From: Yuukianura sp. NJ FZ-2021
Lineage: Eukaryota
DNA: 64,000 nucleotides
Assembly (NCBI GenBank): GCA_046563655.1
Contig: CM102283.1
Span: forward strand, 1,488,001-1,552,000
Reading direction: 5' to 3'
The notes below the pieces were generated by a model. It did not search any database. It worked only from the letters and a program-made list of their open reading frames with translations, and was not told the origin of the DNA. A program made the translations under genes and the position numbers. Positions 11,488-50,600 of the stretch are shown here, one piece after another (the first letter of the stretch is position 1; each line of letters opens with the position of its first letter).

Positions 11488-12070
11488 GATTGTAAGTGTT
11501 CTGTCTTAGAATATCTGCAAGACACTGACTTGCTAGTTGCTATGCCTCACTTCACAGTGTACGCAATGGGTTGATACGGGTGACCTTGGAATCATGACGC
11601 TGCAAACAGAATTCGTCTGAAGCCACTTCACATCCCTCATGATATAAGTGCAGAGAAGTTAAGTTCGCGAGTTTATTTTAGCGACAGTCAGATGACCTTG
11701 AATCTCTAAGGAAAGTCAAAACAGTGAGTTCCAACTTAACCAAAGTTGAGACGGTGCAGAAAGTAAATTCTGGTTGGTTTCACGTTCTCGTTTCTGAACG
11801 TGTTGCAACTTTTAATTAATCTCAGTTAATTAATTGTGCTCCTATTAGGTTTAAAAATTTTCCGTAAACTAACTATAGTGAGTCTCCAGATCATGTCAAA
11901 AGTCCTGTAAATTAACATAGTTTAATTCTGTGCAGCAGATACTGCAGTTACAATTATTGAGAGACGCAAACCAACACTTTACCTTGGTTTGTTGCTTGAA
12001 AAATATTTCAACTGGAATGTTCAAAAATTGCAGCGAAAAGTCCGTGCACGGTATTAAGATTATCGAAGCA

Positions 12071-12408
12071 GACCAATTCCTAAACACAGTCAATTCGTAA
12101 GCACGGTCAATTCGTAAGCAAATCTTTCCGCATGGTTATGTTTCCGTTCTGTAAGGTTAGGTTTTTAAGCTTTTAATTGAATCTAGATTATACTGTGTTA
12201 GGTTAGGCTAGGTTAGGCTTTTTAGGATATTTTTTCTTCAAAATTTTGAAATAGAAATAGGTTTTGCGAGGCTTACGAAAGCACTGCTTACGAATTGGGC
12301 TGCTTACGAATTGACCATGCTTATGAATTGACCGTGCTTACGAATTGTCGGCTTACGAAATTGAGCTTACGAATTGACTGTTTACGAATTTGAGCTTAGG
12401 AATTGACC
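12071..12408. repeat. Foldback/MITE-like element whose inverted arms are built of GCTTACGAATTGAC subrepeats
   Basis: GTCAATTCGTAAGC copies at about 12089-12119 face about 9 reverse-complement-like copies at about 12270-12408. The centre has GGTTAGG motifs. Confidence 0.6.
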
Positions 12409-12665
12409 TGGAACCAAGATTATATCGTTTTTTTTTAAGCAAGATTAGTAAATTTTAAAATAAACCAATAGAATCACTATTTTTCGAATCTGAGTTTCTA
12501 CCAATACTGAAACACTAGACTCAGTACAAGATTACTGTAAAGTTTTAATCCTAACACTGTTGTACCCATGGTGTATGTTGTTTTTTAATTTTTCTGTGCA
12601 TATTATATCCAAGGAAGTAGGGTAGTTTCTTGATACGTTCTTTTTACCCTTTAACTTGGTTTCAA

Positions 12666-15600
12666 TTACAGTAACTTCAGCTGTAAATTTGCCTTTTGGA
12701 TGTGTGTAATGATACTCTTGGGAAGAAGGCCAGAGTTGATAAATGTTGATGTTCCAAAGTAAAGTTCAAGTTGAGGTACAAAGGTATTGTACAGCCACAT
12801 AAAATAGTTTTTGTCTTCATTTGCAACAATTCCATCAACGTCCCAATATTTAGGTGGCATTACGGGTGATTGTGGTGAAGGTCGGTCCAAAAGTGTCGTG
12901 TAGCGATCACGCCAATGTGGAAGATTCGTTTCACGTCCAGCAATATATTCTTCCCAGGTCGGTGGTTGCATTGTGACAAACTGAATACCTGTACTTCCAT
13001 ATGATTTTTGCACTTTTTGTACTTGAATTGTGTGGCCTCCGATAGACTGGATTGATTCATCATGATCATCTTTAAAAGATTTGATCAAATCATCCCATTT
13101 CAGTTTGTCCATCAGTGGCATTTTTGTGAACAGATCAGTATCGTTTATCTGTTCATAAGTTCTGCGGAGTGCCAAAACATCAATGAATGGATCTTTTAGG
13201 CCAAGTCCACCCATTTCAAGCGGCCAGTAAATCCATGCGTCGAGTAAATCCGCTTCTTTTAAGGCTGCAAATTTACTTGTCAAAGCTCGTATAGGAGAAG
13301 TTTCCAGTGATCCAAATACTCCAGCATAAATTGAACGAAGTGAAGAAACAATTTGATCCAAATGGGCACGTCCAAAAATAAGAGCAGCTTTACCAAAATT
13401 ACGTACAAAAAATGTCATGTACTTGTTAAATATTTGAATCCATTCGAGCGTACATTCCGCCTTGGCAAGGAGACTTTTCATTTCGGCAAGAAATTTTTCA
13501 GTCGAGTTTTGATCAATTCGAAGCGTTCCTGTTGAATCTAGTACCAAATATCCCCAATGAATATTTCGTTGTGGTAAAGGAGATGGGCCTGGTACACTTG
13601 CATGTTGTTTTGGTTTTTTCGTTTTTTTTCCATGTTTCTTTGGAATTTCTGGAACTTCTGACCAAATTTTGACTGATCCACTTCGTTTCACATTGACCTT
13701 CAGCCCAACCATACTTCCAAATTCATTAAGTGTTTCCCATGTTTTGGTAACATGCGATTCCTCTTTACTCCAAAACCAAAATTCATCTGAAATTCGGTAA
13801 ATTTTCAACCCTTCACACTTTCGATTCACGATGGATTCAAGTACAAATAGCAAAGTTTCTCCAAAAAGTTTTGAAAGCGCGTGTGATGTAGGAACTCCGC
13901 GTAAGACTTCTTGCCCTGTTTCAGAATTTGTAAATTTCAAACTATGATGTAGGAAATTTTTGAAGAAATCAAGCCACTGAGTTGACACACCAAATTTTTC
14001 CATTGCTATAAGAATAGCTTCGTGTGTTAGTGAGTGACCGAATGTTTCCAATTGTGTTTGAACAAGAATCAAAGGTTTTTCTGGATACAATACTTGGTGA
14101 AGTCGAATTTCTGTGCTCAAAACATGCAAAAATGACTGCTTTGGGTCAATGTCTGGTTTTGGGCGAGGTGGAGCAGGTCGATAAGCTTTTGCTTTAAATG
14201 ATTTTGTTCGAAACTGTAAATTTTCTGTTTCATCAAAAGAAGCTGACGCCATCATTTGATAAGTTTGTCCAAAATCGTTAGTTTCTTCAGATTCAATTTG
14301 AACGAATTCGTCTGTTATTGGATTTTCTTGAGATTGCAGAGAATCAGGAAGAGCTGTTAGGAACATACTTCTGTGGTAACGATTTCGTTCGGATTCGATA
14401 GACGATTGGTTGTACGGTACACGAGTCCACATTTTAGAAGAATAAATTCGGAGAAAACGAGATTTAAAAAATGCGGCCCAACTTACTCCGATATACTGCA
14501 GAAAAAGAGCAGATAAGATATCTTCGTTTAAATATGCTCTGTATTCCCCGGCTAGCCCACGCCGCACATCAGCTGGATGAAATGTTGTTGCGTTTGGCCA
14601 ATCCCAACGATCCAAATTTATCATCCGACTTGTCAGAAGTGATGCAACTTCGGTTACCGTTTCATCATTTTGAGATAGTTCCCGAAGTGAAGATTTTTTA
14701 GTCTCAGGAAATAAATCTTCAGATAGTAGGCCTGCGATCAAATCAAGGTTCGTAAAGAAAAAAAAAACTTTTTCTACCTCAGACTGTCCAATAACTGGGG
14801 TTTTTCAGTTTTTTGCCAAAATTTTCAATAATGAAACCGGCTGAACTTCCGTTTCTATCACAATTTTTAACTTTTTTTAAACTTTTTTTTTACTCCTATG
14901 TGATTTGAAGTGTTCAAAGTTTGGGGAAAAAAATTGTTAAAATTTTTTTTGAAGCACGATTTTTGAAAACCCTGAGTTACTGGACAACCCATTGTAGGAA
15001 ATACACTTTGATTGTCAAGGAACCTTGCCTGTGATGCAGAGCTGGACATCATAGCTTGAGATACTATGGGATTCGACCTTTAAAAATTCCGATGATTCTT
15101 TGCGTATAGTTTTAACCAAGTTATCCACGTCAGTACTTTCACCAGCCGCAAAAAATTCTTTATCCAAGAATTTTTTAAATTCCGTAGGATTAAATTCATT
15201 TGAAGTCGGAGCAGTAAAAATAAGCTTTGAAATTTTAGCAATTGCTTCTTTTTTGGCTTTTGTTGTATCTTCCAATTCTGCATTACTGCGATCCAATTCT
15301 TCTTTTTCTTTTCTTCTTTCATCAACTTCAAGCCATTCTCCAATCATCGACGCAAAGTAAAATGAATATTGACATTTGCGTAGAGCGCGTTGAATTTCGA
15401 GTCGTATTTTAGTTATCCAGACAGTGAGAACATCAGATGTGAGAGAAGGATCATCATTTGAAAATTCAAGGACATCTTTTAAATTTTCAATTAAATTGGC
15501 ATCAATCGTTTCCTTGACGGGTGATGTTTTGACCGCATGGTAAAGACTTTCCAAGGTTTCACGCGCATGTTCAGAAGATGTGCCATTTGATTGCTTAAGA

Positions 15601-15709
15601 ACATCCCTGAAGTGAGCTGTCATCAAATCCTTCTGAATCCGAAGTTGCTCAAGCTTCTCCTCAGTAACTTGTTGAAGAATTGTTTTAAACGAAGCGCCAA
15701 TGCCCAGCT
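12666..15709 (-). CDS. rvt: rvt-type cellular reverse transcriptase-like protein with degenerate catalytic motifs; at least 2 exons, start codon unresolved
   Basis: Exon about 15709-15029 encodes the N-terminal coiled coil (ILQQVTEEKLEQLR). Exon 14731-12666 has RRGLAGEYRAYLNEDILSALFLQYIG, FGHSLTH, RGVPTSHALSKLFGETLLF, YRISDEFWFW, WGYLVLD and YWPLEMGGLGLKDPF, matching rvt-family signature blocks as I recall them. No adjacent gag, endonuclease or LTR. Confidence 0.8.
14744..15027. mobile_element. Non-autonomous hAT-like MITE with CAAGGTTC...GAACCTTG termini, occupying the rvt intron
   Basis: 8-bp TIR, inner TGTCCAATAAC/GTTACTGGACA inverted repeat, near-identical 8-bp flanks CCTGCGAT/CCTGTGAT, and a related copy at 48396-48619. 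Confidence 0.65.
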
Positions 15710-15750
15710 CTATAAGGAAAACAAGTTGAGATGAGCCTAAATTTCCTCTG

Positions 15751-15828
15751 TAGTTAGTTACTTGAAGTAACTAACTATGTATGGAAGACAACATGAAGTA
15801 ACTTACTTCATGTTGTCTTCCATACATA
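15751..15828. repeat. Two abutting perfect palindromes (13-bp and 26-bp arms)
   Basis: TAGTTAGTTACTT-g-AAGTAACTAACTA (15751-15777) and TATGTATGGAAGACAACATGAAGTAA-c-TTACTTCATGTTGTCTTCCATACATA (15776-15828). Confidence 0.9.
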
Positions 15829-18560
15829 ACCTTAGCAATGTTTATAACAGTGTACGTGTAGCCCGACGTTTCTGCTACAAAGATATGTGATAGAAAAAAT
15901 GTCTCACCTAGGAGCGACAGGCAGGAAAAATAAGGCAAAAATGACGAAATTTAGTCATTTTTAGAATGCGCGGACTTCCCTTTTAGATTCAGTTGTGTAG
16001 TCGCTGAAGTACACCAGCAACTGACATTAATTTGTAAGAATTTACCAACTTTAATGCGCTAGGCGTATACTTCAAACATTTAATCGATTATTGTTCAAAG
16101 CGGTATGCAAATGTCTTCCTTGCGATTCTACAGTGTCCTATTGTTTGCAGACCTTGATTTAGATGTAAATATTTTACTGTCTAAATCCTTGCCCTTGACG
16201 TGCTTGGTAATTACCACGCCAAAGGTTTCAGAAAACCTTGAATTTAAAAAATTACTTCCACCCTTGCTGGAATTTAAATTTAAAAAACACGCTAGTTGAA
16301 TTATCTTATTTTAAAAAAATTAGTTTAACAAAGTAATTAGTTTAAATATAAAAGAATTAATAAAATGTTCAAAACGTTTTATTGTATTCCAAGTAAAGCG
16401 TTAACACTAACAGCCTGATTCAATACAAACCGAAACGAAATTAATTTTGTTTGTTGCTGGAATACGAAAAATATTCCAACCCGAATAAACGTAAATGTAA
16501 AAATATTTTCACATGTTAAATGTAACTGCACCAATTAAGTGCAGCTACTATTATGAAGGGAATCGCTTACTTACAACTTCGGCCATACATAACCCCCGTC
16601 TGCGATTGGGCGTGGCGTATGATACAGTGCAAGGGACCTAAAAACGTTACGGACGGACGGACGGACAAAGTCGTGTCAATAGTCTTCTTCAGCATGTAGG
16701 AACTCGTAATTTACGAGTCGTAAACTTGCGTTTCCCTAAAGTAAAAGGCTAACGAGGCAATCCGTGGCGCCGCTTAGCGGCGGCGTTCGCACTTACAGTA
16801 TGGCAATGGCAACTCTTGTATCCGATGTACCCACGGAGTGTAACCATTGCTCTCTGTATTTTTCATGTCAACTGATGGTATATTCGTAGTGGGTGGTTAC
16901 AAACACATGATAATGCAGATTTTTTAATTTTGTAACCGTAGGATTGTATTGTAACGATTAAGTGTGGTCATGGAAAGTAGCTGGACTATCGGGTTACAAT
17001 AGATTGACGTTTAGTTCACTCCTTCACTCACGCAGAGTGTAACTGTACAAGTCAGCAAGGTTTTTTTTGTGAATGATGATCATAACAACAAATATTGACT
17101 AAAAAATTGCATCCTGTTTCGTTTTCCTTCATCTGGCGCTTCTACTAGTCAATCGTTCTTGACATTTTGACGTCTAATCGTCGTCCGTCCATCTGAACTA
17201 TCTGTAAGGTAAATACCTGTCTTGAACTGGATTAAAGGCGCCTGACTCGCTGACTCAGAAAGAAGGTGTTCCTCATTCGTCTATGAATCGAATGTGTCTG
17301 GAAGAGATTTTGACTTCCATTTTCCTTTATTTTCAGTTGCATTAGCGGAGGATATTGCATACCTGACGAACCATGAACCCACAACCGGCGAACGTCAAGG
17401 AACTGAAGGTTGGGAGATTCTACAAATGTCAAGTCGGACAAGTAACGAGAGCTGGACAGCTGTTCATGCTTCTACATACTTCGGCAACTGAGGACATTGT
17501 AAGTTTACACCTATGATATGTTTATCCAAGATAAACTTTATAAACGTAATGAACGTGTTCGGGTTATCCCGTGATGATGTTGTAATGAACTTTGCTCATC
17601 GTTTTCAACTCCCTAGGATATGGAAATTCGAACCTGGACTCGCTTCTACTTGAATGAACCGAATATGAGTCGGAAGTTCAACCTTGATTGTTCACTTCGG
17701 CGCATGGTTGTGGTTGTTATTCGAGCTTCCTCAACCGTCTACCGGGGGCTACTGGTTAGCTTAGACATTGAATCACGAAAGGCTGTTCTGGATTGTGTCG
17801 ATTTGGGTGAAATAAGACAAGTTTCAATTGATCACTTGTATGAAGCAACGCCCGAAGTTGTAGCAACCAAGTGGAAGGTAATCTACGTTATTATTTTTAA
17901 GTCTGTCAACTGATGTATAGCTTATTGGATATGTTAAGTCAAACTAGGCTGGCTACCTTAGAAAGATGTAAGATGTAACTAAACCATTTTCTATTTTCAG
18001 ACGGTTCCCTGTGTGCTGGATGGATTGGCAATGTTTTTAGGAACCCACTTCATGGAGAAAGGACTTCAGCACTGCAGCTTTATTCAAACTTCTAAACAAC
18101 TTCGAATGACAGTGAAAGGAAAACTGGACTCTCATTTCGTCATTGTTTTGGAGTGCTTCTCGAATCCAAAGTCAGTTAAGAACGTTAACACTATGATCAA
18201 CGAGTTCCTCCAAGGTCCTCTTTTGGAAGGACTTAAGAACAACGAGGTTAGTTTCCGTAGTCAATTCTCAGTTTTTAGCTGCTACTCATAGTACTAACTT
18301 AAGCTTCATAACTATTTAGTTGCCATCGTAAAGTGAACTTACTTGTGTGTTTGAATTTAGAACTCCAGCGTCATGGTTTCTGAAGTTCGCGGAGATGGAA
18401 TGATATATTACTCTCAAGTTGCTGGCGTTCAAGATGACACGGCCATTACACTTATGGAGTCGTTTCTCAGTCGAGTCAGTTATCGCGTAATGCGACGTCA
18501 ACTGCCAGCAGTAACCCCTGCAACAGTGGACCTAAATGAAGTGTACTTGGCTCCATATGA

Positions 18561-18809
18561 TGCGGCAGACCGGGGATTCCGCTGTTGCTGAACTGACCTC
18601 TGACCTCGTTGGAGTGATGCACTACTCAATAAATTGACCTCAACTACTTGCTGGACTTGGTGTCCAGTGGTAATCTGCTTAGGAGATGTTCTTTATTTAA
18701 CATCCAGAGAAAGACTGACAAGCATCTACCTAATCTACCTTACGTTAGATTGTGTGTTACACCTGTTGTCCAGTGGGGGTGGGTGTGGGTGGTGTACCGT
18801 CCCGCTACA
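18561..18809 (-). repeat. 3' LTR
   Basis: Identical by inspection to 27526-27774; TG...CA termini; AATAAA on the element strand. Confidence 0.97.
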
Positions 18810-20900
18810 CATTCCACCCGCAAGAAGGGGCCTCCCGGGGGGTGGGGTGGGGGTCTTCTCCTGGAGTGGGGGGAGGGGTCCTTGGATTGGTCCTCGGTCA
18901 TCCTTCCGCTGCCTGGGAGTGGTGACGTGTCTGCACTGCTGGCGCTTGTATGGATGATGATGTGGTGCTTGAGTGGTATTGTGGTGCTTGTTATCTGGTT
19001 TTTCTTTGTCGTTTTTGTGACGTTTTTGCCGATACTCTTTGACTTTGTTGGCAATCTTTTGTTTTTTCCAATTGATGAAGTATGGATCGGTCGCCATAAT
19101 TTTGATTTTTCTTTCTTCGCATTCTTTGCGAAATTGAGTGTCCTTTCTGTCGTGAAATGGACAATTTGACTTTTGGTGACCTTTCAACCAACATCCGAAG
19201 CAAACGTTGGTTGGTTGATTTGGGTTTTGAACGATTTCTTGTAAATCGTTTTGGATGGTGACGAGAATATTTTCTCGCTGAACCGGAATTTCTGGGATTT
19301 TTGTCGGAACTGTAATTTCTACAGTTCTTTCTGAATTTGATGTGATCTCTGGAACTGGTTCTGGACCGGTTGAAGTTTCAGCATCAATTTGAATGTTGTT
19401 TGTAGAATTTGGAGTAATTGAAATTGGTTCATCAACTTCCATTGGTTGAATTTGTTGAGTCAAATTTGTTTCTGTGGTGGATGGAGCATTTTGTTGAAGT
19501 AAATCATTCGAAAATGATTCGATGTCTCCGTCCGCTGTGATTTCAATTTCTGGATTTTCTGGACGCGTAGTTATTGTCACGTTTCCGTTGCAGAATTCAA
19601 CGAGTGAATCAGTTGATTCTTCCGAGGAATGTCTCGTTCGATTCGATTGGCGGTTAGGAACGACGACTACAACGGATTTGATTTTTGGTGACGGAGGTTC
19701 TGGTATTTCCCATGGATTTGAATTTGCGTCATTTTGTCTTTTTTGTTGTTCTGTGAAGATTTGTAGGGTCTTCTGTGACATCCGCCTGGCAAATACACTA
19801 CCATCCAAGGATTTTGGTGGTAATTCAATTAGATCTTCTTTGGTTTTGTAATTGTTTGGAGCTTCGACCATCGCTATGAGTTTCTCTTTTGGACAGACAC
19901 ACTGTCCAGGAAGATCATGAAATCTTGCGATGTCTTCTCTCAGTATGAAAATTTCTTTGAGGATGTGATTTTGAATTCCATCCAAGTTGGCGGTTTTTGC
20001 GATGTCATCGAGTTTTTGAAATTTTGGTTGACCAATATTTGGAGTATGTTTTGGGTAACGAAAAGTGACTGATGTCCATTCATTTTCATATAACTTGAAA
20101 CATTTTCCTCCATGATCCATCTTGATTTTGTTCCATGCTCGGATGAGCAAATGGGAGTCAGATCTTGCGTATTGGATCAAATCTGCATGGAGTGGTCTGT
20201 TTCGAAAGTCAGCGGCTCTTAGATCTTTGTTGGTTGGTTCAACATTTGGAATGAGAGTGGAAATTACTTTCCAGTAATTTTCTTGTCGTTGACGTTCTGG
20301 TTCGTCTGGAGGTTGTGGGAACTTGTAATAGGCTCGCTGTAGGTCAATGATTCCGACGGGGAATATTTTGTAAAACAAGTTCAGTTTTTTGACATCTTCT
20401 TTAGGGTCGAATCCGATTTTGATAATGTTAGGATTTTCAAAGATTGTTTTCAGTTCTTGTATTTTTTCGGAAAATTGAAAAGGGCAGATCACGTAATCTT
20501 TTTCTTGTGTGGAGATTTGAATAAGTGTCGGGTAAGTATGACCAAAGTAAGCTCGATCTGTTCCGTCAGAAAATTCAATGTCGAATCCAATTTCTTCTTG
20601 AATTTTGAGGTCATCCAGCATCTTTTTGAATTCGGAATATTTTCCAGGGATGATAACTGGAGTCGTAGCTCTGTCATCCTTGATGCTTTGACCAGTTTTG
20701 TATGTGGACATTGATTCTGTTATGTGAAATTTGGTCATTTCGGCAAGTTTCGGATTTTGCTGTATGTCGTAGCCGTCCTTGTTTCTTTGGATACAGTAAT
20801 TTCGGAATCCTTGGAATTTCGGATTGTAGAATGGTCTGGTTTTGGCTTTTCCATATTTCTTTTCCATTTCCGCTTTCAGTTTTAGCCATGGAGTTGCCAT
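18735..20900 (-). CDS. Retrotransposon ORF3: Rrp6/EXOSC10/RNase D-like DEDDy 3'-5' exonuclease + HRDC + disordered linker + CCHC zinc knuckle (721 aa)
   Basis: ExoI IGFDIEF, LIQISTQEKDY, IFENPNIIKI, ExoII FDPKEDV, DFRNRPL, ExoIII YARSDSHLL. HRDC-like ILREDIARFHDLPGQCVCP. Knuckle CFGCWLKGHQKSNC. The stop lies inside the 3' LTR. Confidence 0.88.
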   Translation of the reverse strand: MATPWLKLKAEMEKKYGKAKTRPFYNPKFQGFRNYCIQRNKDGYDIQQNPKLAEMTKFHITESMSTYKTGQSIKDDRATTPVIIPGKYSEFKKMLDDLKIQEEIGFDIEFSDGTDRAYFGHTYPTLIQISTQEKDYVICPFQFSEKIQELKTIFENPNIIKIGFDPKEDVKKLNLFYKIFPVGIIDLQRAYYKFPQPPDEPERQRQENYWKVISTLIPNVEPTNKDLRAADFRNRPLHADLIQYARSDSHLLIRAWNKIKMDHGGKCFKLYENEWTSVTFRYPKHTPNIGQPKFQKLDDIAKTANLDGIQNHILKEIFILREDIARFHDLPGQCVCPKEKLIAMVEAPNNYKTKEDLIELPPKSLDGSVFARRMSQKTLQIFTEQQKRQNDANSNPWEIPEPPSPKIKSVVVVVPNRQSNRTRHSSEESTDSLVEFCNGNVTITTRPENPEIEITADGDIESFSNDLLQQNAPSTTETNLTQQIQPMEVDEPISITPNSTNNIQIDAETSTGPEPVPEITSNSERTVEITVPTKIPEIPVQRENILVTIQNDLQEIVQNPNQPTNVCFGCWLKGHQKSNCPFHDRKDTQFRKECEERKIKIMATDPYFINWKKQKIANKVKEYRQKRHKNDKEKPDNKHHNTTQAPHHHPYKRQQCRHVTTPRQRKDDRGPIQGPLPPLQEKTPTPPPGRPLLAGGMCSGTVHHPHPPPLDNRCNTQSNVR

Positions 20901-21005
20901 CTGAAATTGAGGAATTTAAAATTAATTAATCCTGGATTGTGATTTCTCACATTGATATGGTATTTGGAATTTAGAAATTTTGTGTTTTTGTTTCCGGCTT
21001 CGCGC

Positions 21006-24000
21006 TTAGCGGTGATAACCTGCGAGCGTGCGATAATTGACTCTTTGTTTTTGTCTAAGTCTTGGTAAGTTTTCAGATTCATCGTTCGACGGAACTGAAT
21101 CATTTTTCTTTTGATTAAATTTTTGTTTTATTTTTCGGACAAAATATTGTTTAATTTGGGAAACATGCCGTCTCCCTACATGAGAATTGTCATCAATTCT
21201 TACTATTTCGTAAGTAATTGGAGTGGCTTTACTGCCAATTTTGTATGGACCTTCCCATTTATGGGATAATTTTTGTGCAATCCCTTCATCCTTACTGGAT
21301 AGGATATGCGTTTTAATGAGGACGAAGTCTCCTTCATTAAATGTCACATCACGGTGACTTTTGTTATAATACATTCGGTTTTTCTCATGGGCTATTTCCA
21401 TGTTTGCTCTCACGTACTCAATTAATTCTTTAAGTTCATTTGGAACTTTTTGAGCGTGGTTTAAGTCAACCTGAGTTGGACTTTGTTGTAAATTTCTGTC
21501 AAATGGCAATGGAATTTGCCTTCCCAGATTCAATAATGCTGGTGTGACTTTTGTTGTTTCATTTACGACTGTGCGTAATGCTAGAGCGAATTTTTGAATG
21601 TTTTGGTCCCATTTGTGATGACTTTCTTCGATGTATGCTTGAATCATTGTTTTGATGCTTCTATTGGTTCTCTCAGATTGATTGGCTTGAGGATGGTACT
21701 CAGCAATCATTTTATGTTTGATTTTCCATTTTTCACATAAATCTGCGATTATGTTGGAAGTAAATTGAGGTCCATGGTCTGAGATTATTGTGTGTGGAGA
21801 TCCGAATCTGCAGAAGATTTGATCTTCCAGTATTTCTTCAGTTTTCTTTGCAGTTGCCGCTGTCATGGGAAAAAGTTCAACCCATTTTGACAGTTCGTCT
21901 AGAACGACGAGTAAATATTTGCTTTGTTTTCCGCCCGCACTTGTTGGAAATGGACCTTGATAATCAACATGTATTGTTCCGAATACTTCGGATGGCGGTT
22001 TTGCAAATCCTAATTCTCCATAGGGTTTCCTATTTGAGATTTTTACTTTTTGGCATTTGTCACAAGTTTTGACATATTCTGCAATTTCTCTGTTCATATT
22101 GTTCCAATAGCATCTTTGTTTGATTCTTTCTTGAGTTTTTGTTCTCCCGAAGTGTCCGGCTTCTGGGGAGTCATGGAATATTTCCATTATTTTTGTTTTC
22201 ATAGTTTCTGGAATTACTGGTACCATGGTTTTTTCTTGATTTTTGTTAGGATCCTTGTCATTTTTGGGTAATTTTGAGTTGACTGGCTGTGTCTGAGGTT
22301 CATGACTCCTCTCTTCAGTTGTCTTCTCTTGATTTTGATTTGGTTTTTGTGCCGTAATAACGGTCTTTGGATGGCTGCAATCTGGTTTGAAACAAATTGT
22401 TTCATGACAAATTTTTGATTTGACTTGAGTCAATTTTGGTGAAGTTGCAGTCCTTCCTTTGAATGGTTTGATTTTTCGGAACAAAACGTTTCTGTCGAAG
22501 ACATAATTACTCGTAATGCTTGGCCGAACATTCTTCGTAACTTTGAGTTCGTTTATGATTTTTTGAGTTTGTGGATCTTTTCGTTGTTCCGTTGAAATAT
22601 CTTGTAATGATGGAGTACAGTAGACAAGTAGAAATGTTGGTAATAAAATGTTGTCTCTGTCTTGGAGCATGTCTGGATCGTTTTGTGTTTCTGGAAGACT
22701 GGCTCTTGAGAGTGCGTCTGCAACTACGTTTTCGGATCCTTTTCTGAATCTGATGGTTGCGTTCCAGGATGTGATCTCGATTGCCCATTTTGTAAGTTTG
22801 GCTTTTTTGTTTTTCATGGAATTTAAGTAACTGACTGCCTTGTTGTCAGTTTCGATTATGAAGGGGTGTCCTTCAATAAATTCTCTGAATTTGTCGTATG
22901 CAAAGATTATGGCATAAAGCTCTTTCTCATGAATATGAGCGCTTCGTTCTGACTTTTTGAGTGATTTGCTTGCAAACATGATTGGTCTTTCTTTGCCGTC
23001 AATTTCTTGGACAAGAACTGCTCCGAGTCCATTTTCTGAGGCATCACATTGCATGATTATTGGTTTTGAGTAATCGATTGTTTTTAGAATGACATCTTCT
23101 GCCATTGCTCTTTTGATTTCTTGAAATGCATTTTCTTGTTCTTGACCCCATCGCCATTTTACGTTCTTTCTGAGAAGATGATGTAATGGTTCGGCTTTTG
23201 AACTAAAGTTTTTGATGAAGGTGGCGTACCATGCGCACATTCCATGGAATCGTAAAATGTCTTGTTTGCATTGTGGAGTTGGAAATTCCATTATGGCCTT
23301 GACTTTTGAAGGTTGTTTGGTAATTCCATCTTGGCCAACAACATGACCAATGTAATGGACTTCAGTTTGTGCCCAAACTGATTTGATTCTATTAATTGTT
23401 AATTTCGCTTCTTTGAGTCTTTCAAGTGCTTTTTCAAGGTCAATGTAATGTTGTTCCAAGGTTGGTGAGTAAATCAGGATGTCATCAACGAAAATTTTGA
23501 TGAAAACGTCAATGTAATCTTGGAAAACGATTCTCATCAATGAAGTAAATGTTTTTGGTGAATTTTTCAATCCCATCGGCATCACTAGGAATTCGTAATG
23601 GCCGTCTTGTGTGATAAATGCGGTTTTCTCAATGCTGTTCTCGTGCATTGGAATTTGCCAAAATCCTGAGTTCATGTCGAGGACAGTGTACCAGTAGTTT
23701 GGCGGGATTGTTCGCAGGATGGAGTTGCAATTGTCCATTGGAGCTGCGTTTTTCTTCATACTTGCGTTAAGTTTGATGTAATTGATGCAGAGCCTGTACT
23801 TGTCTGAGTTTTTCTTTTTCTCTAACACCACTGGTGCTGAGTAAGGGGATCTGGACTGTCTCACCATTCCTTTTTGAATTAATTGCTCGATTTCTTGGTT
23901 GAGAACGTTTCTTAAGTTTGGAGCATATTTGTAAGGTCGGAGTTGAATTGGTCCGCCTTCTGTTTCTATTTCATGTCTGGTAAGATCTGTTCTGCCATTC

Positions 24001-24566
24001 AGATTGTCGTCTCTGGCGACTTCTGGGAATTTTTGAATTATTTCTAGAATTCTAGCTTCTTTTTTGTCTAATGGAGTTTTTCCATTTGGTTGTTCGTAAG
24101 TAAGGCTGAACAGAATAGCATTCTGTCGATTTTTGAATGAGAATATTGTTGGAAGTTTGTCTTCTGGTTTTGACTTAAACCAAAACTTTTCTCCTGAGAC
24201 ATCGAGAATGATTTCATGTTTCTTCATGACGTCTTTGCCAATGATAAGCGGAAATGGAAGGGTTTCCATTACGTATGCATTGGTGATTATGAGTTTGTCC
24301 AGGATCTTGAATTGGAGTCGAACTGATCCAATTGGTTGAATTTTTTGATTGTTTGCAATAATTAAAGTGAGATTATTGCTAGAGTTGAAATTCTTTTGAA
24401 TTTTCTTGGCTACTCTTTTGTGGATTAGAGTATAATCGCTTCCAGTGTCGAAAATGGCTTCGATTTCTGGTGTTTTTGATAAGATCAATGATGTTGCACC
24501 TTGGGATTTTTGAAATTTGAGGATTGGGAGAAGATAAGATGGTGCTGGGAGCTTATCTTCCCTCAA
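21006..24566 (-). CDS. pol: Pol polyprotein (aspartic protease, RT, RNase H, integrase)
   Basis: Protease FDTGS; RT VLDMNSGFWQI, MPMGLKNSP, FVDD; RNase H CDAS, EKELYA, TDNKA; integrase HDSPEAGH..CDKC, HVDY, SDHG, SERTN. No in-frame stops. Confidence 0.97.
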   Translation of the reverse strand: MREDKLPAPSYLLPILKFQKSQGATSLILSKTPEIEAIFDTGSDYTLIHKRVAKKIQKNFNSSNNLTLIIANNQKIQPIGSVRLQFKILDKLIITNAYVMETLPFPLIIGKDVMKKHEIILDVSGEKFWFKSKPEDKLPTIFSFKNRQNAILFSLTYEQPNGKTPLDKKEARILEIIQKFPEVARDDNLNGRTDLTRHEIETEGGPIQLRPYKYAPNLRNVLNQEIEQLIQKGMVRQSRSPYSAPVVLEKKKNSDKYRLCINYIKLNASMKKNAAPMDNCNSILRTIPPNYWYTVLDMNSGFWQIPMHENSIEKTAFITQDGHYEFLVMPMGLKNSPKTFTSLMRIVFQDYIDVFIKIFVDDILIYSPTLEQHYIDLEKALERLKEAKLTINRIKSVWAQTEVHYIGHVVGQDGITKQPSKVKAIMEFPTPQCKQDILRFHGMCAWYATFIKNFSSKAEPLHHLLRKNVKWRWGQEQENAFQEIKRAMAEDVILKTIDYSKPIIMQCDASENGLGAVLVQEIDGKERPIMFASKSLKKSERSAHIHEKELYAIIFAYDKFREFIEGHPFIIETDNKAVSYLNSMKNKKAKLTKWAIEITSWNATIRFRKGSENVVADALSRASLPETQNDPDMLQDRDNILLPTFLLVYCTPSLQDISTEQRKDPQTQKIINELKVTKNVRPSITSNYVFDRNVLFRKIKPFKGRTATSPKLTQVKSKICHETICFKPDCSHPKTVITAQKPNQNQEKTTEERSHEPQTQPVNSKLPKNDKDPNKNQEKTMVPVIPETMKTKIMEIFHDSPEAGHFGRTKTQERIKQRCYWNNMNREIAEYVKTCDKCQKVKISNRKPYGELGFAKPPSEVFGTIHVDYQGPFPTSAGGKQSKYLLVVLDELSKWVELFPMTAATAKKTEEILEDQIFCRFGSPHTIISDHGPQFTSNIIADLCEKWKIKHKMIAEYHPQANQSERTNRSIKTMIQAYIEESHHKWDQNIQKFALALRTVVNETTKVTPALLNLGRQIPLPFDRNLQQSPTQVDLNHAQKVPNELKELIEYVRANMEIAHEKNRMYYNKSHRDVTFNEGDFVLIKTHILSSKDEGIAQKLSHKWEGPYKIGSKATPITYEIVRIDDNSHVGRRHVSQIKQYFVRKIKQKFNQKKNDSVPSNDESENLPRLRQKQRVNYRTLAGYHR

Positions 24567-26203
24567 CAGTTTAACTGTTGGTTTGAGCTTTGAGTTTGTT
24601 GATTTTGACTCATGTTGGAGTCGTAAGTGTCGTACTCTTCATAGTACTCTTCCTGAGTAACTAGAGCTGTGCCTTGTTTGTTGGGACATTGATTTGTCGA
24701 GTGTCCGCGGCCTCTGCATTTTCTGCATTGAATGTTGTCAGAATTGCTGGCTGTGGCTTGATTATTTGAATTGTTTTGATTTTCTGAGGTTCCACGATAA
24801 TTGCTGTGGTAATTTGGGTCGAAATTTTTTCCTCTGTAATTGGAACGACGTCCACGGTAATTTCCTCTTTCGCCTCGTGTTGATCCTCGGTTGCCCCGAT
24901 TGGATCGACCTCTGTCATTTCCTCTTTGGGAATTTTCATTTTGAGGATTTTCCGTTTCTTTTTGTTCTTGGGTTTCAGCATTTTCATTGCGAGTGTTGTA
25001 GTAAGTTCGACCTCTTCCTCTGTATCGTCCCTTGTAGCTACCTCTTCCACGGGAATTGGTTTTTCGGGAATTGGAATTTGAATTTGAATCGTCTACTTGG
25101 TCTTTGTTTGAATTATTTTGACCTTTTTGGAATTTTCGTTCTTCGACGTTGCTCACTGCTGGAGCGACAATTGGTGGTAGACGATCTTTGCTCTTGGTTG
25201 CTTTGTCTTGTGCTGTCAAGTTGTCATGGACTGTGCGACAGTCATCAAATAAGGCTTGTGGAGAGTCGTACTCCTTGGTTCCCAGCATGGTTCTGATTCT
25301 TGGATACAGTGAGTTTTGAACTCTTAAGAGTGACTGAGCAGTGGTTTCATTTGGGAAACACAATTTTGAGAGTCTGAGCATTTCGTAAATATGAACTTCT
25401 GTGGGTTCATGAAGCAATTGAATTTTGTTTGTAAGGTATTTGACTCTGTTTCTGTGTTCGACTGGATTGTCGAATCTTCTGAGAAATTCAATTTTGAATC
25501 CGTTCCAAGTGTCGGTTTCATTATGGATGTGTTCCCACCATGCATGTGTTTCTTGGGGTAAAATGGATTTTACCATGTACAGCCATTGTTGGGGTGGAAA
25601 GCCTTGACTTGTAAAATATCGTTCTGCGTCCTTGAGAAACGATTCTGCTGTTGATTTTTTTGGATTAAATTTCGGAGCTGGAATTTGTGAATTGACTGAA
25701 GTCAATCTCACTGTTTGAAGTGCCTCCGTCAGCGTTTCAAGTGTGACGAGTTGACTGGGTCCAGCAATAGACGTATTAGAGCGTCTGTCAATTTGATTGG
25801 TTGCTGGGGCTCCTCGAACTAATGACGGTTGTCTAGATTCGTCTTGTGCTTTTGTTGCTCGGGCTCTGGCTTCTTTTGCTTGGTCCGCAGCATTAATTAC
25901 AACATGGAACATTTGTGTTAATTGGGCCATTTGTTCGTCTGAAAAGACTTGACCTTGGATTGGGTTGCTGCTTGGTCCTGGATTTGGATTTGGACGTGCC
26001 GGATTTAGGTTGGGAGCTGGCAAACCGACATCAAATAAACGTTGAAGGTCTTCTTCGAATTCTGTTTCTTGTTGATCAATTTGCTGTTGATCTAATTGTT
26101 GTTGATTTTGGTCTGTCGCCATTCTTCTTTGTCTTCCGCTTCGAGTGGTATCGGCAATTTCTGGATCGAGCGGTAGCAGATTTCTAAGCTCACGTTTACT
26201 CAT
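24563..26203 (-). CDS. gag: Gag (capsid-like region, RG-rich linker, CCHC knuckle)
   Basis: 546-aa ORF upstream of pol with CRKCRGRGHSTNQC. Pol is in the -1 frame at G-TTA-AAC just before the gag stop. Confidence 0.9.
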   Translation of the reverse strand: MSKRELRNLLPLDPEIADTTRSGRQRRMATDQNQQQLDQQQIDQQETEFEEDLQRLFDVGLPAPNLNPARPNPNPGPSSNPIQGQVFSDEQMAQLTQMFHVVINAADQAKEARARATKAQDESRQPSLVRGAPATNQIDRRSNTSIAGPSQLVTLETLTEALQTVRLTSVNSQIPAPKFNPKKSTAESFLKDAERYFTSQGFPPQQWLYMVKSILPQETHAWWEHIHNETDTWNGFKIEFLRRFDNPVEHRNRVKYLTNKIQLLHEPTEVHIYEMLRLSKLCFPNETTAQSLLRVQNSLYPRIRTMLGTKEYDSPQALFDDCRTVHDNLTAQDKATKSKDRLPPIVAPAVSNVEERKFQKGQNNSNKDQVDDSNSNSNSRKTNSRGRGSYKGRYRGRGRTYYNTRNENAETQEQKETENPQNENSQRGNDRGRSNRGNRGSTRGERGNYRGRRSNYRGKNFDPNYHSNYRGTSENQNNSNNQATASNSDNIQCRKCRGRGHSTNQCPNKQGTALVTQEEYYEEYDTYDSNMSQNQQTQSSNQQLNC

Positions 26204-26222
26204 TCAGCTTAGTTCTGCTGTA

Positions 26223-26808
26223 GGTTACTCTACTGAGTTACCTTAGGTTACCCTACTGGGTTACCTTTCGTTGGTTACCCTACTGGGTTACCATTCGTTG
26301 GTTACTCTACTGAGTTACCATGGAGGTTACCCTACTGGGTTACCTTAGTTTAGGTTACTCTACTAAGTTACCTTGAGGTTACCCTACTGGGTTACCTTTG
26401 AGGTTACCCTACTGGGTTACCTTAGTTAGGTTACTCTACTGAGTTACCTTGGAGGTTACACTACTGTGTTACCTTTGAGGTTACACTACTGTGTTACCTT
26501 GAGGTTACCCTACTGGGTTACCTATTTGTTAGGTTACTCTACTGAGTTACCTTGAGGTTACCCTACTGGGTTACCTTGGTTAGGTTACTCTACTGAGTTA
26601 CCTTGTAGGTTACACTACTGTGTTACCTTTGAGGTTACACTACTGCGTTACCTTGAGGTTACACTACTGTGTTACCTTTGAGGTTACACTACTGCGTTAC
26701 CTTGAGGTTACCCTACTGGGTTACCTTTTGTTAGGTTACTCTACTGAGTTACCTTAGAGGTTACACTACTGTGTTACCTTGATTCTTAGGTTGCCCTACT
26801 GGGCTACC
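26223..26808 (-). repeat. Tandem array of 23 covarying 20-nt hairpins in the element 5' leader
   Basis: Unit on + strand is GGTTAC(CC/TC/AC)TACT(GG/GA/GT)GTTACC with about 3-10 nt spacers. A 24th unit sits at 27178-27197. Confidence 0.95.
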
Positions 26809-27500
26809 TTTTAACGTAATACTTTGATTTTACGTTGTTTTTTAATAATTTTTTGTAAAAGGACTTTAATTTTTTTCTTTAATAGAGCGTAGGATTACGT
26901 TTTTGCGTTATTCCGTTTTGAATTTTATTTTTAATTTGTGTAATTTGTTTAATTTTTTCCAAATTTACTTTTTAAATTTGTTTGTAAAAGGAATTGTGCA
27001 ATTGAAAGTGAACGAAGAGACGCAGGATGTCTACTTCTACGTCCGCACTGGCTGCGTGTGTTTATGTTTACTTGTGCTTTGCTTTCGCTTTTTTTTTTTT
27101 GCACTGCAATTCCAGTGGAATTGCAAAAAAAGTTAATCTGAACTGTCCGTTATGTTTTTGTTGTCTCGTCTTCTGTCGGTTACTCTACTGAGTTACCGTT
27201 ATGAAAGGAGATAATGAGATATGCAAATCGACTGTCTTTAACGGGCCGTTGACTGTGAAGGACTCTATTTTTTTCTCTTCTTTTCCGGACTTTTTCACAA
27301 AATGGCGGCTGCCACGCTAACGGTGATTTTGCCGCTTCTGACCTTTGAGGTCGCGATTTCAATTCGATTTCCGGTTCATGTCGGTCATTGGTTATGCTGC
27401 CTTTGAATGTTTTTTGAATTTGGTATGTGTACCTTTGTTTTTTGCCTTTTGAAGTGATGATTTGTGGCTGCTTCTGACTGCGATTCCTTTGGAAACGATG

Positions 27501-27515
27501 TTCGGCTGGCTACCA
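27501..27515 (-). promoter_or_regulatory. Candidate primer-binding site
   Basis: TGGTAGCCAGCCGAA begins 10 nt inside the 5' LTR boundary. The cognate tRNA is not identified. Confidence 0.4.
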
Positions 27516-27525
27516 AGTCGTCACG

Positions 27526-27774
27526 TGCGGCAGACCGGGGATTCCGCTGTTGCTGAACTGACCTCTGACCTCGTTGGAGTGATGCACTACTCAATAAATT
27601 GACCTCAACTACTTGCTGGACTTGGTGTCCAGTGGTAATCTGCTTAGGAGATGTTCTTTATTTAACATCCAGAGAAAGACTGACAAGCATCTACCTAATC
27701 TACCTTACGTTAGATTGTGTGTTACACCTGTTGTCCAGTGGGGGTGGGTGTGGGTGGTGTACCGTCCCGCTACA
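27526..27774 (-). repeat. 5' LTR
   Basis: Identical to 18561-18809. Confidence 0.97.
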
Positions 27775-29537: not shown

Positions 29538-30122
29538 TTATTCCGGATTCCATCCACCTCCTCCTCCGCCATGATGCGACCCTCCTCCTCCTCCTCCAGG
29601 GTGGCTAGGGCGATGATTGCCACCTTCCCATCCTCCGCCTGGATGGTTGCCACCTCCTCCGCCTGGATGATGGTTGCCACCTTCCCAGCCTCCGCCTGGA
29701 TGATGGTTGCCACCTTCCCATCCTCCGCCGGGATGATGGTTGCCACCTTCCCATCCTCCGCCGGGATGATGGTTGCCACCTTCCCATCCTCCGCCTGGAT
29801 AATGGTTGCCACCTTCACCGCCAGGTTTGTGGTTGCCACCATCCCATCCTCCTCCCCCAGGATGATGGTTGCCACCCTCCCATCCTCTACCGCGAACTAG
29901 ACCCCAGTACTCGCGCGTGAGTCCTTGCTGTTCTTCGGTTTCCCCAATTTGGAGGATTTTCTTGGTATCATGTCCAGCGTCAATTTCAAATTCCAACCCA
30001 ACAACGTTTCCGTCCTTAACGTTGAAGGTAATTCCGTCCAAGTTCCCTACTTCCTCTTCCACTGGTACTCCATGACACACCAATATCAAAGTAGCAAACG
30101 TCAATAACGCAAAAAGCTTCAT
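29538..30122 (-). CDS. Secreted Gly/His/Trp-rich repeat protein
   Basis: Signal peptide MKLFALLTFATLILVCHG, acidic pro-like region, then about 8 GGWEGGNHHPGG-type repeats. Single exon. Confidence 0.75.
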   Translation of the reverse strand: MKLFALLTFATLILVCHGVPVEEEVGNLDGITFNVKDGNVVGLEFEIDAGHDTKKILQIGETEEQQGLTREYWGLVRGRGWEGGNHHPGGGGWDGGNHKPGGEGGNHYPGGGWEGGNHHPGGGWEGGNHHPGGGWEGGNHHPGGGWEGGNHHPGGGGGNHPGGGWEGGNHRPSHPGGGGGGSHHGGGGGGWNPE

Positions 30123-30450
30123 CGTGAATTCTAAAACTGAAGAGCATGGATTGTCATTGTCGTTTTATTTAAAATAAAATCAGCAAAAACATTGCATAAT
30201 TTCGAGGTTGTAAAACTCTCATTAGCTTTCATGCAATTTGGAAATTATGGGAATGATTTTGGTCCTCTTTTGTAAGCAATCATTAGAAAATATTTATAAA
30301 TATTAAAAAATATTTCCCAAGAATACAAGTTTAAATATTTCAGGCTTCCAAACCAGAATGAAACTATTCCCAAATAGTACTAAAAGCATCAAAATACTGC
30401 TAGGAATCGATGAAACTGAAACGTATGAACATCGTAGCTCATAGTGACAT

Positions 30451-33311: not shown

Positions 33312-33536
33312 TTTTAATTTAATTTAGCCGCAAAACGAAAAGTCAAATCGAACTCCAATTTTGAGGTTATCTAAAGGCTGGGTTAAACCATGCCGCAAAG
33401 ATTTCTTATTAGAGTCTTTATGTAATTATAGGGCTATCCAGAAGTTCTAAATTTCCAAGGAGTTTTCTTACTGTCGTGACTAATTTTTATAATTTAAAAA
33501 CATCAGTTTTTTTTTTCATTTTATTTCAATAAGTCT

Positions 33537-34584: not shown

Positions 34585-35531
34585 TTTCAGAAGGAAAAAT
34601 AAAACCGAAAAAATATGTGTGAAATTTACTTCGAATCCCAATCGCGAGTTTCTGAGAGTATCGGTTCCACAATGAGCCGAAATCTTAAATACCTTTTGTA
34701 TGGCCTAAATATTTTTTAAAAATCATATATTAATTTAAACTATTTATTTAAATTAGGTCAACTTCTCACCAATTAAATTAGAAACTGCGGTGTGCAGGTT
34801 TTTGTGCTCACTTATATTAAAATGACGCCGTGTAGCGGGAGGAATTGCATCAACATTCTAGTAACATTTAAGTTGATTTCGAAGGATGGCTCCTATTAGC
34901 CAAATATGTAAGACTTTAGCCAATACCTTGTATTGGCCCTTTTTAATTAAAAATACTAATGTTCTGGCTGAGTTATGTAAATTTTTAAATTCCATTTTAA
35001 TTTGTAGCAATACTCTTAAGGCAAGGTTTGTTGAATGTTTAATTTTTTTACGCATTGCGCCTAGCATTATTTGTGCAGTTACCAATCCGTAGACCATACA
35101 AATTGAAAATGTTTTAAACACCCCAAAAAGTTGAAAAACAGCAGAAAAATTGACAATTAGTAACTAAATTAGGAATTAAATTCGAAAGTTAAAATTCCTT
35201 TTTTCTAGACAGAAAAGCAGATGACCTCGAAGGAAAATTAATCCTGGGACAAGTTTTCCACGAAGGCAAACAAAACACTTTTTTAAAATTACATTTCCTG
35301 CTGCGGTAAATTCCCAATTGCGTTGCGTGTCAAGTTTGTTCGTTTGACGGAGGATTTTAGATGTGCTCAACTTTTTGTCTTTTACCGTTTCACGTTTAAA
35401 GCAGCAACATTGCCGACCTAGTATATTGTTACAGTGTTACAGAGACTACCACAGTGTAACCACATGGTGGTTACGAATATGTCAGATATACATATTGGTT
35501 ACACTGGACCTTAACTTTAAATCAAAATTCA

Positions 35532-47600: not shown

Positions 47601-50600
47601 GGTCACAAGCACAAGGTTCACAGCCTTTTCCACTGGCAATTTTCCAGTGATTTTCTTTACAAGAGTTGCACTGCACTCCTTCCACGTTGGGCAAACAGAA
47701 GCACTGACCTGTCACCCTGTCACAAGTCGTTTTGTTTGGATCCGTGCCCAACATGTTACAAATGCATCCTAAAAATTACAAAATTTTCAAAATTTATGAA
47801 TTCACACTTTTCAAAATTCGACAATAACTGACGAGGAGAGGCTTTTTTGCAAAATAAATTATGTGACTAGTCACAAAAATTTCTTATAATTAAAGAAAAA
47901 TTTTGACACTAGTTTTGTTTCAAAGTGCGGAAAAAACGTTGTTATAGCCGTGGTTCGAATCCACATCGTGTTAACTTTTTTTCGCACTTCGAAACAAAAC
48001 TGGTGTCGAATTTTTTTTTAATTATAGGAAATTTTGGTGACTAGTCGAAAAATTTATTTTGAAAAATGTTTGAAAACCTCTCCTCGTGAGTTTTAAAAAA
48101 TTCTTACGTTGACATGTTTGTAAAACTGCGTCACCAAAGTAGCCGTCACGACATCTCTCACAGTTGAATCCATCAGTTTGAAATAAACACTGCAAACATT
48201 GACCTGACTTGCTGTCACAGTTGCCAGGTCGTGACATGTCAACATTGTTGTTACATGCACACAACGAACAGGCGCCGCCAGGAACCTCCGGATTCCCAAA
48301 GTAGTTTTCAGCACAGAGGTCACAACGTGCTCCTAGAAAATTTGGAAAAATAAAAATATTCAATATGTTTTCAAAAGCTGAGACAAAAGTTTTTCCAAGG
48401 TTCGTAGACAAGAAAAAACTTTTTCTACACGAGGTTGTCCAATAACGCGTAGTTTTAAAATTTGTTTGAAAGTAGGAAATCTACTTTTCAATGATAATTT
48501 TTTTGCGTGTATTGTGAATGGGATTGGTGTTAGAAGTTGTTTGAAGCAGTAATTTTGAAAACTCTGAATTATTGGACAACCTGTTGTAGGAAATACAATT
48601 CGGTTGTCAAAGAACCTTGTTTTTTTTATAAGCTTACCGCCATAACCTTCATTGCAATTACAAATGACGTCATTCGTGTGACGGTCCAATCCGCATCGAG
48701 ATGCAAACGAATGCTTTGGCACTGTGTCGTTTGTGCCTGGACATGGACAAGCTCTGCACGGAATGTCTACACCAATACGCGGATCTCCGTAAAATCCTTC
48801 CCCGCATCTAAAAATTCACTTTTCGAAATGTACATCCAAAATTCAAAATTTGAAAATTCAAAAATGTTTTGTATAAACCTATCACAGTAGGTTCCAGTGG
48901 CGTTGTTTTTGCAGCCAATGCATGTTCCAGTGTGATCGTCGCAGATATCAGCATGTCCGTTGCAAGAACACGGTTTGCAGTTCGGGAATCCCCAGAACCC
49001 TGGTTGGCACTTGTCACACTGCGGACCAAAAATATTGGCAACACACCGACATTGTCCTGATTCTTGACAAAAGTTATCCAGCGATCCAATTGGGTTACAC
49101 TCACAAGCTAAAACAAAAAATTTCAAGAAAAATTCAACTTTTCAAGAAAATTTTCTTAAGATTTTTTTTTTGAATTTTTGAAAAATAACTTACGTTTGCA
49201 CCCCTCCGGGCCAAATCCAGAAGTGCCAGGAGCACACCGACTGCAATCTCTTCCAACTACATTGGGTTTGCACTGACACTGACCTCCCAGAGTGTCACAA
49301 ATGGCACTTGTTGACCCCGTGGGACTACACCCACATTCCCTTGCTCCGTTGTACACAAAGTATCCAGAAGAAGTCAAAGTGGGTTTGCACTGTGGTGATT
49401 CATGCTTGATCACACTGAGCGCAGACTCTGCACAGCGGTAGTGGTCAAATTCACGCTTTCGATAGTCTGCCACTGGATCGCCGTGGAAAAATGGAAGATC
49501 ACCGGTTCTTGGTATAAGAGCAATCTGTTTCAAAAAGTAAAAGATTTTCAAAATTAAAAAAAAAATTTGTTCAAAAAATTTATGAGTTTCTTTTTAAAGT
49601 TTGAACTTACAGAGTCAATTAAAATTGGATTTGATGGACCGGGGTCTGACTCTTTCACGTCCAGTCGGACAGTGTACTTGGTTGAATTGTCAAGACAAAG
49701 TGGTGGGTGCATGATAGCGTGTCTCTCTTCTGTTATGAAAAGTTTCAAAAAAAAAAGAATCTTTTTTAGATTTTGAGAAGTCTAAAAAACTTTTTTTTTG
49801 AAAAAGTTTGCAATTACCGCTGCGTAGAAGCAATCTCGTGGCAGAGCTGGGAGGAATCGTGTTGGCGCATGGGCCGTTTGGATCCGGCGGATTGTCTTGC
49901 GTCACCAAAACTTCAATTTGGTGCCATCCTGGTTGCTATACACAAATTTCATATTAAAAACTAAAAATTTGAAACTTTTCGGTTCATGTTTTTGAAAATT
50001 TAGGTCTCACTTGTGGTTCATATCTGATTTCCAAATCGTATTCCATTGTTGTTGTAACATCGTCAATGACAAATTCCAAGTAGGAGTCGTCAAAGGCCCT
50101 TACAAATCCTGGACCGCTCCATGGTGACCCTCTTCCACCGCCATACGGTTCTCGAATTGCAACTTGACAATTCTGAAATTAAAAATTTCAAATTTTAGAA
50201 AAGTTTACTTTTATAAATTTTTGTAAAAAAGCAAACTTACAGGACTCGTCTTTGCAGCTTCTGCTTCAAACGTGTAAAAGTCCAGGGATGGAGCAAAAAA
50301 TGCTTGTTCAGGCGTACTGCAATTTCGACCGGTTACATGTGGACGACATCTGAAAAAATGAAAATAATTTGTACAAAATGTTCCACAATTTCATAAAAAG
50401 TTGCGTTCTTTTCTTTTCTCTGACTTTGATCATTTAAGAAAAAAACATACCTGCACTTCCCACTAAAAACGTCGCAATTGTTATCCAATGCACCTCCGAC
50501 GTCACAGTCACATTTTTTACATCCCTCTGGATCTTCTGATAAACCTGAAACAACAAAGCTAAGTTGAAAAGTGAAAGGTCACGTGGAATATAAAGGTCAA

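Follow-up and report, generated by a model that had tools for sequence, protein, structure and literature searches.

Introners, in the account of them given in PMC11282704, are elements resembling MITEs (miniature inverted-repeat transposable elements) that provide one splice site of an intron while the duplicated target provides the other. They are described as deriving from many transposon types and as very rare in animals (PMC9860276, PMC12130899), and a survey of 2022 reports them from two animal groups only (PMC9860276). Introners are known from Micromonas, Aureococcus and dinoflagellates, and in two of the dinoflagellates, Polarella and Symbiodinium, GC-AG borders are reported to be prevalent among introner-derived introns (PMC11282704). 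The word hAT is absent from the main texts of PMC9860276 and PMC12130899. Single events are also on record, and in Drosophila sechellia one intron has been traced to the insertion of the element Doc1053 in a gene (PMC3296678). The present analysis concerns a locus of this kind in a window of 64,000 nt, by which the whole stretch of DNA analysed is meant (Yuukianura sp. NJ FZ-2021, assembly GCA_046563655.1, contig CM102283.1, positions 1,488,001 to 1,552,000 of the forward strand). In it, a MITE is inserted in the coding sequence of a gene resembling the reverse transcriptase-related rvt genes, and the reading preferred here, with a probability of about 0.7, is that the insertion made a GC-AG intron.

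The mechanism, with the element as the source of one splice site and the duplication as that of the other, is already known for introners, and the locus is a clean new example of it. Like introners, this MITE combines inverted terminal repeats, a target-site duplication and one splice site per source (PMC11282704). Unlike the introner families, where many copies are each an intron, there is one such copy here and its sister is a passenger; the duplication is of 8 bp and hAT-like, against 3 bp in the Micromonas introners; and the host is an animal. Unlike introners too, the MITE bears no sign of being specialised for intron creation, as its splice sites depend on a CAG/G target (the slash marks a splice border). 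With Doc1053 the locus shares that one insertion into coding sequence amounts to a whole new intron, with the duplicated target at or near the exon–intron borders, but Doc1053 is a retrotransposon that added residues, whereas here a DNA-transposon MITE is found with a GC donor and a predicted restoration of the ancestral mRNA (PMC3296678). Among plant elements there is a further parallel. The maize element Ds, of the hAT family, is spliced from exons by means of sites at its ends, usually imprecisely and with altered proteins as the result. The MITE resembles Ds as a hAT-type, non-autonomous exonic element with splice sites at its ends, and differs from it in that the predicted junction is exact.

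The gene is read on the minus strand, where exon, octamer, MITE, the letters ATTTG, a second octamer and exon follow each other in the layout drawn by the sequence-only reading, an earlier examination of this DNA from its letters (Table 1). Across the insertion the strand reads ...TGC ATC ACA G/GCAAGGTTCC...CGAACCTTG-ATTTG-ATCGCAG/GCC TAC..., or, with wider flanks, ...GAT GTC CAG CTC TGC ATC ACA G/GCAAGGTTCCTTGACAA...TTTTTTTTTTCTTTACGAACCTTG ATTTG ATCGCAG/GC CTA CTA TCT GAA GAT.... The segment between the slashes begins with GC, ends with AG and measures 297 nt (3 x 99), and the open frames on its two sides, 15030-15770 (247 codons) and 12669-14732 (688 codons, starting GLLSEDL), lie in one genomic frame. 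When the 297 nt are removed, ...DVQLCIT meets GLLSEDL in the next alignment column, and the joined protein aligns without a gap to 10 of 10 full-length homologues, which read straight through the site as ...DVQCCIKGLSSEELL... or ...CIKGLSSEEL.... The earlier description of a frame-preserving segment nearly co-terminal with the MITE was therefore borne out in length, frame and colinearity. As judged from these alignments, removal of the segment would restore the ancestral protein residue for residue.

The two octamers, ATCACAGG and ATCGCAGG, are identical at 7 of 8 positions. Across a gap of 284 nt, a match of this quality occurs by chance at 1.1% of random window positions if any offset from 0 to 10 is admitted, and at 0.13% if the offset is 0. 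The first octamer codes for Ile-Thr-Gly, which aligns to a conserved Ile-Lys-Gly, and this indicates that the element entered an exon. At the other end, positions 14746-14731 read TTGAT-TTGAT-CGCAGG, preceded by GAACC, an exact 5+5 tandem repeat; repeats of this size whose unit uses three or more different letters are seen at 0.17% of window positions. The spacer ATTTG can thus be explained as the outcome of a later TTGAT duplication, so that the second octamer would originally have abutted the MITE end, as it does for hAT-type elements. On this reconstruction the original insert, before the TTGAT duplication, is put at 284 + 8 = 292 nt. The substitution and the 5-nt duplication that the second duplicate already carries indicate that the insertion is not brand new.

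Nearly the whole predicted intron is MITE; the rest amounts to 13 nt, of which 1 nt lies at the donor end and 12 nt at the acceptor end. The donor GC consists of the last G of the first duplicate and the CAAGG terminus of the element, and the acceptor AG lies inside the second, once-mismatched duplicate, as the sequence-only reading had also proposed. At the sequence level, this division of the splice sites between element and duplicate is that of an introner, as is an intron almost co-terminal with a MITE that bears inverted termini and a duplication. Within the repeated octamer, the cut 15028..14732 is the sole one that gives both a GY start and an AG end. The consensus of donor sites is CAG/GTAAGT, and CAG/GCAAGG agrees with it at 7 of 9 positions, the mismatches being +2 and +6; an otherwise strong match outside these two positions is the usual pattern of GC donors. 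Upstream of the acceptor, the T-rich inner end of the MITE holds a pyrimidine run, with a branch-point-like TTTAC 3' of it, which may serve as the tract and the branch point of the intron. GC start, AG end, a donor strong in its remaining positions and a pyrimidine tract are the features of U2-type GC-AG introns, and the predicted intron has all of them. In the predicted RNA fold (-71.1 kcal/mol, z = -2.3) the inverted termini pair, which brings both splice sites close together. Splicing at these borders would create the junction 15029>14731, joining ...TGCATCACAG to GCCTACTATC..., and the MITE-free (empty) site is predicted to read ...ATCACAGGCCTAC....

The model that best accounts for this arrangement proposes that a hAT-like MITE inserted into the rvt-like gene, within a coding exon, with ATCACAGG as the target, and duplicated 8 bp. 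The target end CAG/G and the element start CAAGG would have formed the upstream junction CAG/GCAAGG, a near-consensus 5' splice site of the GC type, and the downstream duplicate would have provided CAG/G as the 3' splice site, with the pyrimidine tract and the branch-point-like TTTAC contributed by the MITE. The U2-type spliceosome could then remove the MITE together with one duplicate and restore the ancestral mRNA exactly. The later TTGAT tandem duplication, being inside the intron, would have lengthened it from 292 to 297 nt and left the mRNA unchanged.

Table 1. Coordinates of the features of the locus and of the sister MITE copy, numbered from the first letter of the window.
Feature	Coordinates	Strand	Description
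Upstream coding exon, rvt-like gene	15029..15770	-	open frame to ...SSYDVQLCIT(G)
First target-site duplicate	15028..15035	-	ATCACAGG; 7 nt exon (Ile-Thr-G..), last G is intron +1
Predicted GC-AG intron	14732..15028	-	297 nt, phase 1, CAG/GCAAGG...GATCGCAG/G
MITE copy 1	14744..15027	.	284 nt, non-coding, 31% G+C; termini CAAGGTTC.../...GAACCTTG
Pyrimidine run	14754..14767	-	14 nt (T10 C T3), part of the MITE, at 22-35 nt before the AG; putative role
Tandem duplication TTGAT-TTGAT	14737..14746	-	MITE end TTG + AT of the duplicate
Second target-site duplicate	14731..14738	-	ATCGCAGG, 1 mismatch; holds the AG acceptor, last G is the first exon base
Downstream coding exon, rvt-like gene	12666..14731	-	(G)LLSEDL... 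through stop codon
MITE copy 2	48396..48619	.	224 nt, orientation same as copy 1, diverged

The boundaries of the MITE are given by its sister copy. Both copies align end to end, exactly from CAAGGTTC to GAACCTTG, with no similarity beyond, and the matches to the terminal motif CAAGGTTCNNNNACAA in the window are exactly the four MITE termini (0.79 matches expected by chance). A sensitive blastn search of the 64 kb found these two copies and no third one, and two patterns searched against genome and viral contigs, the first of them also against metagenome contigs, gave 0 matches elsewhere. The abundance of the family is seen in contigs of four public DNA runs placed on positions 12000-16500, of which three stem from one sample of an organism A and one (X5) from an organism B. 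In the bin 14869-15019, the summed contig depth, which is not a copy number, reaches 4246 in X2, 27068 in X3 and 858 in X5, while exon bins have about 30-45, 200-430 and 0-10, respectively. All four runs have contigs that part from the window sequence at precisely 15027 (3 in X1, 33 in X2, 59 in X3 and 26 in X5), and contigs diverge also at 14743/14744; their continuations are mutually unrelated (agreement 0.4-0.5). This shows that the family has many insertion sites in organisms A and B, and it confirms the boundaries of the element.

As to its class, the terminal consensus of hAT elements is YARNG, and all four ends of copies 1 and 2 read CAAGG, which fits it. The 8-bp target-site duplication of the hAT superfamily is found at copy 1, with 7 of 8 positions in agreement; the flanks of copy 2 (AGTTTTTC/TTTTTTTT) agree at 5 of 8 and lie in a T-rich intron, so that they are uninformative on a duplication. 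The 64-kb window contains no autonomous hAT partner. By its termini and duplication, the MITE is best described as a non-autonomous, hAT-like DNA transposon.

Copy 2 lies in an intron of a minus-strand gene (48333-48637, 305 nt, G/GTAAGC...TTTCTAG/GA) whose product is of the laminin beta type, with EGF_laminin, Laminin_N and LAMININ_IV_B domains. Alignment, domains and intron borders all agree with the earlier placement of a sister copy in an ordinary intron of a laminin gene (LanB1). About 73 nt of this intron are neither MITE nor duplicate, and copy 2 is preceded by A instead of G, so that no GC donor was formed; to judge from these borders it is an ordinary intronic passenger. The introner-type mechanism, to which the locus had been assigned, is upheld in its geometry and in the exonic insertion; at the level of the family, one of the two window copies corresponds to an entire predicted intron and the second is contained in an ordinary one. 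It appears improbable that in an animal genome the MITEs function as an introner family, with exonic insertions at CAG/G targets routinely rescued as GC-AG introns. If this were the case, a measurable share of the GC-AG introns of the genome would be recent MITE insertions, and introners with an 8-bp duplication would exist where introners are very rare.

The gene that carries copy 1 has 19 homologues of its downstream frame at E <= 1e-5, the best with about 50-51% identity; those with names belong to Bradysia coprophila (LOC119078878), Pseudolycoriella hygida (Bhyg_03898) and Folsomia candida (LOC110852291), and part of the homologues bear the name 'Reverse transcriptase domain-containing'. 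No near-identical protein or transcript is present in the protein collection, where the search with the 688 residues tops out at 51% identity. Junction-spanning fragments from near relatives were likewise not found, a search with the first 224 residues of the downstream frame giving one distant match (43% identity) among 216 candidates. The match to the Pfam family RVT_1 is weak (E = 4.2e-4, 20.5 bits against a cut-off of 29.6 bits), and so is the best match in the PDB, an RNA-dependent DNA polymerase (E = 0.0025). As the RVT_1 match stays below the cut-off, the gene is named 'rvt-like'. The rvt genes are described as having a reverse transcriptase core with a large loop between motifs 2 and 3, and as single-copy host genes outside mobile elements (PMC5718144); nothing specific to rvt in arthropods was found in a search of the literature. 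Homologous DNA was reached in two metagenome contigs of 3.1-3.3 kb (L001 and L002), with continuous coding sequences of 925 and about 919 residues. Their ends resemble untranslated regions, and AATAAA stands 15-20 nt from the end of L001, which makes both of them probably cDNA and thus uninformative on introns. Both probably represent transcripts of small animals, from soil or water, within metagenome or metatranscriptome data. About 320 nt past the stop codon of the rvt-like gene, at 12074-12347, there is an inverted-repeat element with 47-nt arms (89% complementary) and CAATTCGTAAGCA-like units, where contig depth exceeds that of the flanks many-fold in X2, X3 and X5, which marks it as another repeat family.

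An alternative explanation is that the MITE is a disruptive exonic insertion. Unspliced, the message would reach a stop at a TGA four codons into the MITE (...CITGKVP-stop), and the allele would be a recent pseudogene or a null allele. This is unlikely, although part of the evidence is common to both explanations. The family is abundant and has many different flanks, so exonic insertions are to be expected, and colinearity follows from the geometry of the duplication alone, as the removal of MITE, one duplicate and 5 nt restores the ancestor by construction. The junction 15029>14731 is a prediction, and the five runs that contain the locus are all DNA and not RNA. Against a dead gene it can be argued that 935 codons across both frames (247 + 688) are still open. 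Stops are created by about 5.2% of single-base changes, and it is calculated that after 2.5% neutral divergence about 3.7 new stops would be expected and about 2.6% of neutral sequences would still be open; the substitution and the 5-nt duplication show that there was some time for such decay. The context of the donor, CAG/GCAAGG, is also far above chance. In addition, a contig of X3 (record 20) that differs from the window at 22 positions in 442 nt (about 5%) spans the second duplicate and the spacer up to 14742, while another (record 22) has its start at 15020, 8 nt within the MITE, and both are found at the local single-copy depth of about 200. A diverged contig that carries the insertion at full local depth indicates that the insertion is common to diverged haplotypes and leaves little room for an empty allele in the sample. 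Among the joints listed, beside which there are 16 more, no contig of the empty site joins 14731 to 15029; contigs are unable to prove the absence of an empty allele, as rare variants are dropped from them. For organism B, the depth at the locus is about 3. The exon variants point in the same direction, with 16 synonymous and 14 non-synonymous changes among the 30 listed, where 22% synonymous would be expected (P = 1.7e-4 in a binomial test, or P = 0.006 if 30% is assumed), in a list that is the best-supported subset (193 further differences exist) and is pooled over several haplotypes, not all of them shown to bear the MITE. Eleven of the 14 non-synonymous changes fall at 14221-14371, the part that aligns worst among the homologues, and the sole coding indel listed is of 3 nt and in frame. 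The one contig proven to bear the MITE has 5 synonymous and 4 non-synonymous listed differences, too few for a test.

Besides these limits on contigs and variants and the predicted nature of the junction, some other points weigh against a MITE-made intron. Few introns have GC donors, and position +6 of this donor is G instead of T; moreover, only one of the two MITE copies in the window equals a whole intron. A further argument for a disabled gene is its start. The homologues begin with MSASF..., and the window has ATT GGC GCT TCG TTT (IGASF) in place of the ancestral ATG, with no in-frame ATG upstream within the same open reading frame (ORF). The lost ATG could mean decay of the gene, unless an upstream mini-exon is used. 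The residues that follow the ATT are well conserved and hence probably translated, and it is possible that the start is supplied by a mini-exon, ATG(15823)...AA/GTAAGT, with an intron of 59 nt between it and CTAACTACAG/A(15747). The same region of the minus strand, 15690-15830, also contains two perfect hairpins with stems of 24 bp and 11 bp (z = -9.3), and a GTAAGT is located in the loop of the first.

Removal of the MITE might also be partial or use other sites, which would make the allele leaky or alternatively spliced. The MITE has a GT 5 nt from its border, at 15023 (AAG/GTTCCT), which could be joined to the same AG, and hAT elements such as Ds are known to leave exons imprecisely. That intron, 15023..14732, would have 292 nt and leave 5 extra nt in the message, shifting the frame, for which this donor was rejected; furthermore, it has T, C and C at +3 to +5, and the repeat holds no second pair of GY and AG at a spacing of 297 nt. 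This outcome is held to be very unlikely. Even harder to sustain is the proposal that an older intron at the site was later colonised by the MITE, as happened in the laminin gene, whose sister copy is evidence that introns are among the places where the family inserts. Of the 297 nt only 13 are not MITE, and once the 8-bp duplicate is subtracted about 5 nt are left, an impossible intron, which led to the rejection of this model. The element abuts donor position +1, and the duplicated target is coding and aligned to conserved residues.

Few births of introns in animals are so legible that the inserted element, its duplicated target and the coding sequence from before the insertion are all still readable. 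A very legible example is added here, in which an 8-bp duplication of hAT-like kind goes with a GC donor and an exact, though predicted, restoration of the mRNA. The locus illustrates at the level of single bases how an exon can tolerate a transposon that has no specialisation for making introns, since the target happened to be a proto-splice site (CAG/G) and the CAAGG terminus completes a donor of the GC type. If RNA confirms the splicing, the locus would be a natural substrate on which to study the recognition of GC donors and of hairpin-forming introns. It also suggests a genome-wide screen for MITE copies in coding exons whose 8-bp duplicate ends in AGG.

The window holds other repetitive sequences and gene arrays. 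For an ORF of 327 residues, the best match with a name is from Folsomia candida, at 39% identity. Two direct repeats of 249 nt, 100% identical, at 18561-18809 and 27526-27774, surround three minus-strand ORFs: a gag-like one (24563-26203), an intact Gypsy-type pol (21006-24638, with protease, reverse transcriptase, RNase H and integrase), and a third (18735-20915, 726 residues) at the env position, with a 3'-5' exonuclease domain (PF01612). The whole, 18561-27774, looks in its sequence like a young long terminal repeat element with an exonuclease gene. Adjoining the gag-like ORF, at 26216-26811, is a tandem array of about 24 copies of a 25-nt unit (GGTTACyCTACTGrGTTACC...), and a second array, at 58233-58475, is made of 8 copies of a 22-nt unit. 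On the minus strand, an ORF at 29538-30164 has a signal-peptide-like start and about nine tandem 33-nt repeats that encode Gly/His-rich units of the type GGGWEGGNHHP. Also on the minus strand, positions 33500-39100 contain a tandem group of four paralogous genes that share blocks of 67-78% identity and whose ORFs resemble C-type lectin domains by eye.

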